Assembly (NCBI GenBank): GCA_041663805.1
Contig: JBAYMA010000001.1
Span: 1-27,799, forward strand
From: Candidatus Shapirobacteria bacterium
GTDB taxonomy: Bacteria; Patescibacteriota; Microgenomatia; UBA12405
DNA length: 27,799 nt
Direction of reading: 5' to 3'
The notes beneath the pieces are model-generated. The model saw only the letters and a list, made by a program, of their open reading frames with translations. It was not told the origin of the DNA and did not search any database. The position numbers and the translations under genes are program-made. Position 1 is the first letter of the stretch; each line of letters opens with the position of its first letter. Positions 24,909 to 25,963 of the stretch are shown piece after piece.

Positions 24909-25472
24909 GTGAAACACGAATTTCGTTACCATTTATTGGCTTTGTTGATTATTTTTATAATTATCTCTGTTTTTTTAGTAATTTTAAGAGTTAATAATAT
25001 TAAAATAATTTCTGTATTTCTTGGTTTATTTTTAGGTTCTTTTATTTTAGATATTGATCATTTTATTTTTTGGTTTTTTCTCAAACCAAACTTAGAAGAA
25101 AGTCGTCTAGTTAGACTTGCTCTAAAACATTATAATTTCAAATCTGTCTGTCATATTTTAAAAACCAGTCATAGAAGTCATCACAATCTTATTTTTCATC
25201 ACTATTTTTTTCAAGTAATTTTAACTTTATTTTCTTTTTTTATATTCACTTTAACCAACAATCTTTTTATTTTTAGTTTTATTGTTGCTATGAATCTTCA
25301 TCTTTTAGTTGATGAAATTATTGATTATTTTTATAATCCCAATATTTTACAAAATTGGCTCTTTGCTAGAGAAGAGACTCAGCTTCCTGTTAAATTTTTA
25401 AACCGCTATATCTTTATGTTTTTAATTTTCTTTGTTATCTTTATAATATTTATGATCTATTCCCAATTATGA
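24909..25472 (+). CDS. Multi-pass membrane protein, YdjM-like putative metal-dependent hydrolase
   Basis: GTG start; several TM segments; GSFILDIDH, FHH and NLHLLVD His/Asp motifs resemble YdjM-type metal ligands. Confidence 0.55.
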   Translation: MKHEFRYHLLALLIIFIIISVFLVILRVNNIKIISVFLGLFLGSFILDIDHFIFWFFLKPNLEESRLVRLALKHYNFKSVCHILKTSHRSHHNLIFHHYFFQVILTLFSFFIFTLTNNLFIFSFIVAMNLHLLVDEIIDYFYNPNILQNWLFAREETQLPVKFLNRYIFMFLIFFVIFIIFMIYSQL

Positions 25473-25963
25473 TGGTATCCAGTCCAGAATTATTTTTACA
25501 AGCCAAGAAATATCTCTCTAGTCATCAAAAAGAATTAGTCACTGATGTCGAGATTATTTTAAAACGGCTTCAAATCAAAGATAATATCAGTGATTTTTCT
25601 TTTTTAGTTTCTCCTCTTGCCAAAGCCTATGAAGGTTTTTTGAAAGATTTTTTCCTTAAAATAGGAATTATTTCTGATGCAGAATATGAAAGTGATCGTT
25701 TTAGGGTAGGGAAGACTCTTAATCCATCTCTTCGTTACAAAAGATTTTCCGTCTTTCAAAAGTTAGCCGATTATCATGAAAACGGAGAAGAATTAGCTGA
25801 AATGCTTTGGGATGCTTGGAAATTTGGTCGCAATGAAATATTTCATTATTTTCCCAATAATTTCAAAAATCTTTCCCAAAATGAAGCTGAAGAAAGAATT
25901 AATCTTCTTCTCCGAGCCATTATCAGAGCCAGCGAATTTATCGACCAAAATCAAAAAATCTAA
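25469..25963 (+). CDS. Stand-alone HEPN-domain protein resembling the C-terminal domain of RnlA/LsoA (RNase LS)
   Basis: DFSFLVSPLAKAYEGFLK resembles the RnlA DY..L.YP.LR.IEG.LK segment; R121-NEIF-H126 fits the HEPN R-x4-H motif. Confidence 0.7.
   Translation: MMVSSPELFLQAKKYLSSHQKELVTDVEIILKRLQIKDNISDFSFLVSPLAKAYEGFLKDFFLKIGIISDAEYESDRFRVGKTLNPSLRYKRFSVFQKLADYHENGEELAEMLWDAWKFGRNEIFHYFPNNFKNLSQNEAEERINLLLRAIIRASEFIDQNQKI

Follow-up and report, generated by a model that had tools for sequence, protein, structure and literature searches.

A core gene pair predicted to encode a membrane-linked HEPN ribonuclease of the RnlA/LsoA type in Candidatus Shapirobacteria

The stretch of DNA analysed here (the window) comprises 27,799 nt of a contig of Candidatus Shapirobacteria, which belongs to a GTDB family designated f1 in this study, and it contains on the plus strand a pair of overlapping genes near its end. 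The first gene (24909-25472, GTG start) is an open reading frame (ORF) of 187 amino acids for a YdjM-like membrane protein with five predicted transmembrane helices, and the second (25469-25963, ATG start) encodes a 164 amino-acid long stand-alone HEPN domain protein of the RnlA/LsoA type, i.e. a predicted endoribonuclease. The two genes share an ATGA start/stop overlap (25469-25472), which was read directly in the sequence and is of the kind that couples translation of neighbouring genes. The overlap had been pointed out in an earlier note on this DNA, where the pair was proposed to be either an undescribed two-gene defence or stress module, in which the membrane protein controls the nuclease, or a domesticated housekeeping ribonuclease (RNase). 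No description of this HEPN family, or of its pairing with a membrane partner, was found in the literature.

The structure of the 164-aa protein was modelled with AlphaFold2 (AF2) on 24 homologues (pLDDT 87), which resulted in an all-alpha, up-down helical bundle. In a VIA-align comparison of the model with 48,161 PDB representatives, the top 13 rows were almost all HEPN domains (Z 7.4-11.5), aligned over residues 1-160. The best match was LsoA (5hy3_A, Z 11.5, root-mean-square deviation 3.6 Å, 142 aligned residues, chain residues 190-345), with RnlA in the second position (7aex_A, Z 10.9, residues 206-357), followed by Roquin and classical HEPN domains. Foldseek queries against PDB also ranked LsoA and RnlA near the top with probabilities of 0.97-0.99, but with none at E≤1e-3, and the model matched AFDB clusters named RnlA/LsoA DBD.

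Sequence similarity pointed in the same direction. The 164-aa protein produced a sub-threshold match to Pfam PF18869 (HEPN_RnaseLS; E 6.7e-4, 20.4 vs 29 bits) over residues 27-70 only, and a relative at 75% identity carries a precomputed match to the same family, when neither NCBIfam nor PADLOC returned a match for the HEPN protein or the membrane protein. Among 34 diverse members of the HEPN family, 16-17 individually matched PF18869 or PF19034 at E≤1e-3 (best 5.5e-7). A profile of these 34 members had LsoA as its sole meaningful match in PDB (E 0.004), aligning DYSF..AKAYEGFLK with DYST..ALRAIEGFI and WK.GRNxxFH with WHENRHGLFH, and it also recovered genuine multi-domain RnlA_toxin (PF15935) proteins (E ~7e-6).

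The conserved residues of the HEPN protein coincide with the active site of RnlA, in which R255, E258, R318 and H323 are each needed for RNase activity and toxicity, and are located at the canonical HEPN dimer interface (PMC8266594). K52, E55, R121 and H126 correspond to these four positions at equal spacing, the first being Lys and not Arg. Of these, K52 and E55 (K52-A-Y-E55, codons at 25622-25633) sit in the AKAYEGFLK helix, which is aligned with the Arg-x2-Glu helix of LsoA bearing the other two catalytic residues, whereas the R-x4-H catalytic motif R121-N-E-I-F-H126 (codons at 25829-25846) is aligned with RHGLFH of LsoA and conforms to the HEPN superfamily motif, R-x4-6-H with a polar residue after Arg. 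R121, N122 and H126 were invariant among the 24 close homologues, and K52, E55, K59, R79, G81, W117, R121, N122, F125 and H126 among the 34 distant homologues, down to 28% identity. The intact R-x4-H motif and the RnlA-like helix upstream of it, both of which had been noticed in the earlier note, were thus recovered. On account of the fold matches, the profile similarity and the aligned invariant catalytic residues, the 164-aa protein is classified as a HEPN domain of the RnlA/LsoA type that stands alone and whose active site appears intact, and it is most likely a dimerising endoribonuclease, as judged from sequence and model.

With RnlA and LsoA of the E. coli anti-phage toxin-antitoxin (TA) systems rnlAB and lsoAB (PDB 7aex, 6y2p, 5hy3; PF18869, PF19034), the protein shares the HEPN fold, the positions of the catalytic tetrad, and a weak but consistent sequence-profile similarity, in agreement with the RnlA-like assignment made initially. 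It is unlike them in the Lys at the first catalytic position and in its score below the Pfam gathering threshold. Unlike RnlA, it consists of the HEPN domain only: the alignment with RnlA takes in the whole protein but only residues 206-357 of RnlA, and the TBP-like N-terminal domains (NTD/NRD) are absent, as had been claimed. Furthermore, unlike in the RnlA/LsoA loci, no RnlB-, LsoB- or Dmd-like inhibitor gene lies beside the HEPN gene here. The earlier reading that no RnlB-like small ORF flanks it was borne out, since no space is left for one: the HEPN gene is overlapped by the YdjM-like gene upstream and by a radical-SAM gene downstream. Finally, whereas the TA and defence loci of RnlA and LsoA are mobile, the present HEPN gene is a core gene of vertical inheritance, which is paired with a membrane protein.

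The 187-aa partner had been described as metallohydrolase-like with DxDH, FHH and HLxxD motifs. Its AF2 model (pLDDT 86) consists of helices throughout, five of them hydrophobic, and the motifs are present as DIDH (residues 48-51), FHH (96-98) and HLLVD (131-135), being invariant or nearly so in 24 orthologues: D48, D50, H91, H97, H98, H131, D135 and E136 were invariant, and H51 was found in at least 90%. The respective codons are located at 25050-25061 (D48-I-D50-H51), 25179-25202 (the His cluster H91-H98, HHNLIFHH), and 25299-25316 (H131-L-L-V-D135-E136, an HxxxD motif). With the N-terminus inside, the Lys and Arg residues number 12 on the inside and 2 on the outside, and by this positive-inside count all three motifs would face the cytoplasm.

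The score of the membrane protein against Pfam PF04307 (YdjM) was far below the cut-off (10.9 vs 29 bits, E 0.32), and the PF04307 model found no match in genome G000 or in the other sampled genomes of the class. Against AFDB clusters, the membrane model matched proteins of the candidate phyla radiation (CPR) annotated as membrane-bound metal-dependent hydrolases, with TM scores of 0.6-0.8; the PDB-wide VIA-align comparison returned generic helical hairpins only, and the shape search of the ESM Atlas gave TM scores <0.4. Alignments were also compared with a reference alignment (A5) of 19 bona fide YdjM proteins, which were taken from other Patescibacteria and pass PF04307. The family-only alignment of the membrane protein (A2) reached an hhalign probability of 17.6%, and the alignment broadened with class-wide distant relatives (A6) reached 91.7% (E 7.8e-7, 101 columns). 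In the latter, DxDH was paired with the PDLD motif of YdjM, the His cluster with HRxxxH, and HLLxD with SHxxxD. Conserved YdjM positions in A5 were H6, D48, D50, H73, H78, H113 and D117; apart from H6, which lies outside the aligned region, their equivalents D48, D50, H91/H92, H97, H131 and D135 are all present in the membrane protein, and invariant within family f1. A divergent CPBP protease (PF02517) was rejected as an identity for the partner (hhalign A2 vs a CPBP alignment, A4: 0.2%). The sequence and model comparisons support a divergent relative of the YdjM/PF04307 superfamily in a separate CPR-specific clade, which upholds the membrane metallohydrolase-like assignment in the sense of a YdjM-type relative. 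As in YdjM (PF04307, formerly DUF457), the protein is polytopic with an aligned series of DxD(H), H...H and HxxxD motifs. To our knowledge, no biochemical activity has ever been demonstrated for the YdjM family, "hydrolase" being itself a prediction, and no functional study was among the hits that our literature search listed.

The distribution of the pair was surveyed across the GTDB family of the window (101 genomes) and across the class (301 genomes). Within the family, the HEPN gene was found in 95 genomes (60/61 of the high-quality genomes, and 29/29 genera), essentially always in one copy, and in at least two of the six HEPN-negative genomes (G055, G075) the upstream membrane gene is located right at a contig end. 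The YdjM-like membrane gene was present in 94 of the 101 genomes. In 92 of the 95 genomes with a HEPN gene, it was located directly upstream of that gene and on the same strand, at a distance of -1 to ~25 nt, and the pairing is therefore far above chance. Co-occurrence in other genomes, on which the earlier note had let its proposal depend, was accordingly found. The co-folding score of the membrane and HEPN proteins (alignments A2 and A1) was 0.01, when the mark was 0.32.

Across the class, the HEPN gene was all-or-none by family, with e.g. f1 (18/18), f4 (19/19), f13 (9/9) and f19 (16/18) being positive, and f8 (0/19), f27 (0/15), f29 (0/14) and f30 (0/16) negative. Outside the class, the gene was present in only 7 of ~190 sampled Patescibacteria genomes. 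In a maximum-likelihood tree, 40 HEPN domains clustered according to taxonomic family; 18 label changes were required, which is the lowest number possible, versus a shuffled mean of 29.7. Identities to orthologues of other genera were 57-66% for HEPN, 53-66% for the MacB permease encoded upstream, 42-53% for the HlyD adaptor, and 43-52% for the YdjM-like protein; HEPN has diverged at about the pace of the permease, and less than the other two. HEPN relatives were found neither on phages nor on plasmids by tblastn against both collections, nor in a scan of IMG/VR. As a near-universal single-copy gene with slow divergence and a tree that matches the taxonomy, the HEPN gene is, to judge by these sequence comparisons, a chromosomal and vertically inherited core gene under housekeeping-level constraint.

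In other families, the HEPN gene is located after secE-nusG-L11-L1, or between class A penicillin-binding protein genes and nrdR with ribonucleotide reductase, and its further neighbours include pth, gyrB, a SpoU methylase gene, mnmA, and a P-type ATPase gene. All neighbourhoods examined were housekeeping ones, none of them a defence island. A second type of membrane partner was found in sister families: a gene for a CPBP/Rce1-like (PF02517) membrane protease is located one or two positions downstream of HEPN in f4, f13, f28, f41, f54, f61 and f36, and in f15 and f23 the two are fused into 383-aa proteins with CPBP at the C-terminus of HEPN. The fusions from these two taxonomic families cluster together in the HEPN tree, and possibly represent one fusion event. 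In these sister Microgenomates pairs and fusions, the HEPN gene is orthologous (same tree) and its neighbour is metalloenzyme-like and membrane-bound, as in the window; in contrast, the CPBP partner is unrelated to the YdjM-like protein (hhalign 0.2%) and lies downstream, when the partner in the window lies upstream. A shorter YdjM-like gene adjoins HEPN in f28, f34 and f61, and in f28 and f61 the YdjM-like, HEPN and CPBP genes are consecutive. The family of the window lacks CPBP genes altogether, with no match to PF02517 in the five of its genomes that were checked. In f13, a P-loop kinase-like gene (AAA_18/cytidylate kinase-like) is located between HEPN and CPBP, and the CPBP proteins of this family (rows L021, L022 and L049 of A4) have lost the EExxxR motif, with WE...F instead, which suggests that they are catalytically dead.

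The reading preferred here, with a probability of roughly 0.55, is that the two genes form a core pair which is specific to its lineage, in a CPR bacterium of the Microgenomates type, and which encodes a membrane-linked HEPN RNase of neither TA nor mobile nature. The HEPN protein would act as a dimeric, metal-independent endoribonuclease using R121 and H126 with K52 and E55. Both genes would be co-translated via the ATGA overlap, probably from an operon beginning at the MacAB-like exporter genes, and the five-helix protein of the YdjM superfamily would present its Asp/His cluster to the cytoplasm. Because HEPN is associated with two unrelated, metalloenzyme-like membrane proteins via gene overlap, adjacency and fusion, the RNase would work at, or be docked or regulated at, the inner membrane face, and a similar coupling would operate in the sister families via the adjacent or fused CPBP/Rce1-like protease. 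Its physiological role may be RNA processing, or envelope-linked control of RNA stability. RnlA/LsoA-type HEPN RNases are known as phage-defence toxins that need restraint, whereas the same domain is here a fixed single-copy gene, kept across dozens of genera of an ultra-small groundwater lineage with genomes <1 Mb. If active, the protein would constitute a novel RNase of CPR bacteria, associated with the membrane, and exemplify a toxin-type nuclease at work in core physiology, and the pair would provide the first functional context for the YdjM family.

Several observations weigh against this reading, and they are given here together with the alternatives that they bear on. Three genomes of the family (G016 and G035 of one genus, and G022) are without a YdjM-like match, although their HEPN gene is intact and its motif kept; in G035, the upstream gene run is missing as well. 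In a fourth genome (G042), the YdjM-like gene stops after 106 codons beside a complete HEPN gene. No adjacent membrane partner of HEPN was detected in f14, f19, f92 and f106, with neither a YdjM-like nor a CPBP gene detected at all in f14 and f19. Conversely, the membrane genes are present largely without HEPN in f5, f15 and f21, and in f4 the YdjM-like gene lies 25-30 kb away from HEPN. Of the genes concerned, HEPN is thus the one retained most consistently. It is often coupled to membrane proteins but not obligatorily so, since HEPN and the membrane genes each occur apart; conserved synteny alone could explain the adjacency. In the wider YdjM-like CPR clade, moreover, there are zero invariant columns and the His and Asp positions decay in several lineages. 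The partnership cannot therefore generally depend on hydrolase activity, and catalysis by the YdjM-like membrane family is uncertain from its sequences. RNase Y (TIGR03319) was found in 100 of 101 genomes of the class regardless of HEPN; a role of HEPN as its replacement was rejected accordingly, and no obvious housekeeping endonuclease is missing that HEPN could replace. Much of this would be expected if HEPN were a soluble housekeeping or stress RNase acting alone, with the adjacent membrane gene reflecting inherited gene order without a link. Such a solitary role is conceivable but on balance unlikely, because the start/stop overlap is preserved across 29 genera, the adjacency recurs with two unrelated membrane families, and the HEPN-CPBP fusions of two taxonomic families, even if possibly from one event, are hard to explain without functional coupling.

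Repeated attachment of HEPN to membrane enzymes would equally suit a protein which is no nuclease but binds RNA or nucleotides as a regulatory or adaptor subunit of the YdjM-like or CPBP metalloenzymes. Some HEPN domains are indeed non-catalytic binders (PMC3710099), and no partner for the control of toxicity is evident here. Yet non-catalytic HEPN domains have usually lost the motif (PMC3710099), whereas the four RnlA-catalytic positions and the R-N-x3-H signature are invariant in the 34 homologues down to 28% identity, which makes the adaptor role quite improbable. The least probable of the alternatives is a two-gene module of anti-phage, abortive-infection or TA-like function, with a membrane protein that keeps a toxic RNase in check or sets it free according to a signal it senses. 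It draws on the closest characterised relatives, RnlA and LsoA, being anti-phage toxins, on the tight translational coupling, which resembles that of TA operons, and on a more distant HEPN relative from another Patescibacteria lineage: a 596-aa DUF3378-HEPN-RNase HII protein, the gene of which is flanked by hsdM and hsdS in a type I restriction-modification operon (locus L097, G512:C34, 469-4341). The nearest multi-domain relatives, of which this protein is an example, are defence-type, which also counts against the preferred reading. On this basis, domestication of a defence nuclease is plausible, its direction being unproven. Nevertheless, a classical TA or mobile defence role is unlikely owing to the distribution (a single-copy gene near-universal in the family, inherited vertically and diverging slowly, in housekeeping neighbourhoods, with no PADLOC match and no relative in the phage, plasmid and viral collections), and owing to the presumed toxin outliving the loss or truncation of its presumed controller in four genomes. 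Type II TA systems, in which the toxin needs a neutralising partner and the distribution is patchy or mobile, differ from the pair in both respects. Consequently, the defence module of the earlier note was not supported, nor is the nuclease under obligatory, antitoxin-like control by the membrane protein, given that HEPN is preserved in genomes in which the membrane gene is missing or truncated. From the proposed stress module, a stress-responsive membrane-RNase coupling is possible, and strengthened by the CPBP pairs and fusions; the housekeeping or domesticated RNase, offered as the other option, fits the evidence better than a defence module.

Within the preferred reading of a membrane-linked core RNase, a more specific and rather speculative version is an Ire1-like circuit, in which a YdjM-like or CPBP sensor (both in some lineages) gates the dimerisation of HEPN at the inner membrane face. 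Bacterial membrane-associated HEPN domains have been predicted to cut RNA at the inner membrane face upon a signal (Anantharaman et al. 2013, PMC3710099), and the combination of a cytoplasmic HEPN RNase with a membrane component is common to these, to the KEN domains of eukaryotic Ire1 and RNase L, and to the pair. However, the published membrane HEPN groups are of the DUF4145, Abi2/Swt1 and Zn-ribbon types with one or two transmembrane helices (PMC3710099); none of them is RnlA-type or has a YdjM-like or CPBP partner, and the membrane link in the window is not a fusion but a separate, translationally coupled gene. Should such a circuit exist, the state of the envelope or lipids would be linked to RNA cleavage or translation, in a regulatory system essential throughout the Microgenomates lineage, and a defence-type RNase would have been domesticated into core physiology.

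Upstream of the pair, genes for an HlyD adaptor, an ABC ATPase and a MacB-type permease (21929-24884, plus strand; Pfam) form a conserved neighbourhood. Together with the YdjM-like and HEPN genes they make up one same-strand run (21929-25963) with overlaps or gaps of ≤25 nt, and the order HlyD, ATPase, permease, YdjM-like, HEPN was found in other genomes from several genera of family f1. Because the run is kept in several genera, the five genes may constitute a single operon that ties the pair to the MacAB-like exporter. A promoter and terminator scan of the locus gave nothing informative in the AT-rich DNA, and the sequence datasets containing the locus were DNA only (groundwater and landfill metagenomes, one of which may be the sample of origin), with no RNA dataset listed. 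Downstream, an EpmB-like radical-SAM gene (25960-26793, minus strand) is convergent on the HEPN gene, the stop codons of the two overlapping at 25960-25963. It is accompanied by a gene for an EpmA/PoxA-like class II aminoacyl-tRNA-synthetase paralogue, and the two genes (25960-27757, minus strand) are of the type involved in modification of elongation factor P.

Two further observations concern other RNA enzymes of the class. A cut-and-reseal cycle between HEPN and RtcB was considered and rejected, as RtcB was not found in the sampled genomes of the HEPN-positive families f1, f11, f13, f14, f19 and f28, and did occur in f21, a family without HEPN. In many families of the class (e.g. f4, f8 and f19), the RNase Y match begins only at model position ~95-160, and these RNase Y proteins may be without the N-terminal membrane anchor and coiled coil that are usual for the enzyme.

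Some single genomes deviate in the details of the locus. In G016 and G022, each from a further genus of the family, an unrelated ORF on the opposite strand takes the place of the YdjM-like gene, between those for the MacB permease and HEPN (154 and 140 aa; L033 5495-6028 and L034 5484-6262, respectively), and both ORFs are predicted to encode soluble proteins. In G042, a 98%-complete genome of four contigs from the same genus as the window, the rest of the interrupted YdjM-like gene is found in another frame (L007, G042:C2, 1474-2554), which points either to genuine pseudogenisation or to a frameshift introduced in assembly. The YdjM-like gene at G047:C56:8748-9218 has one in-frame TGA, possibly due to a sequencing error, pseudogenisation or recoding. 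Lastly, a second, far more divergent HEPN copy (E 1e-40, in comparison to 1e-91 for the syntenic copy) is located at G094:C14:4901-5359 in a genome of the same genus, and may represent a paralogue or contamination of the bin.

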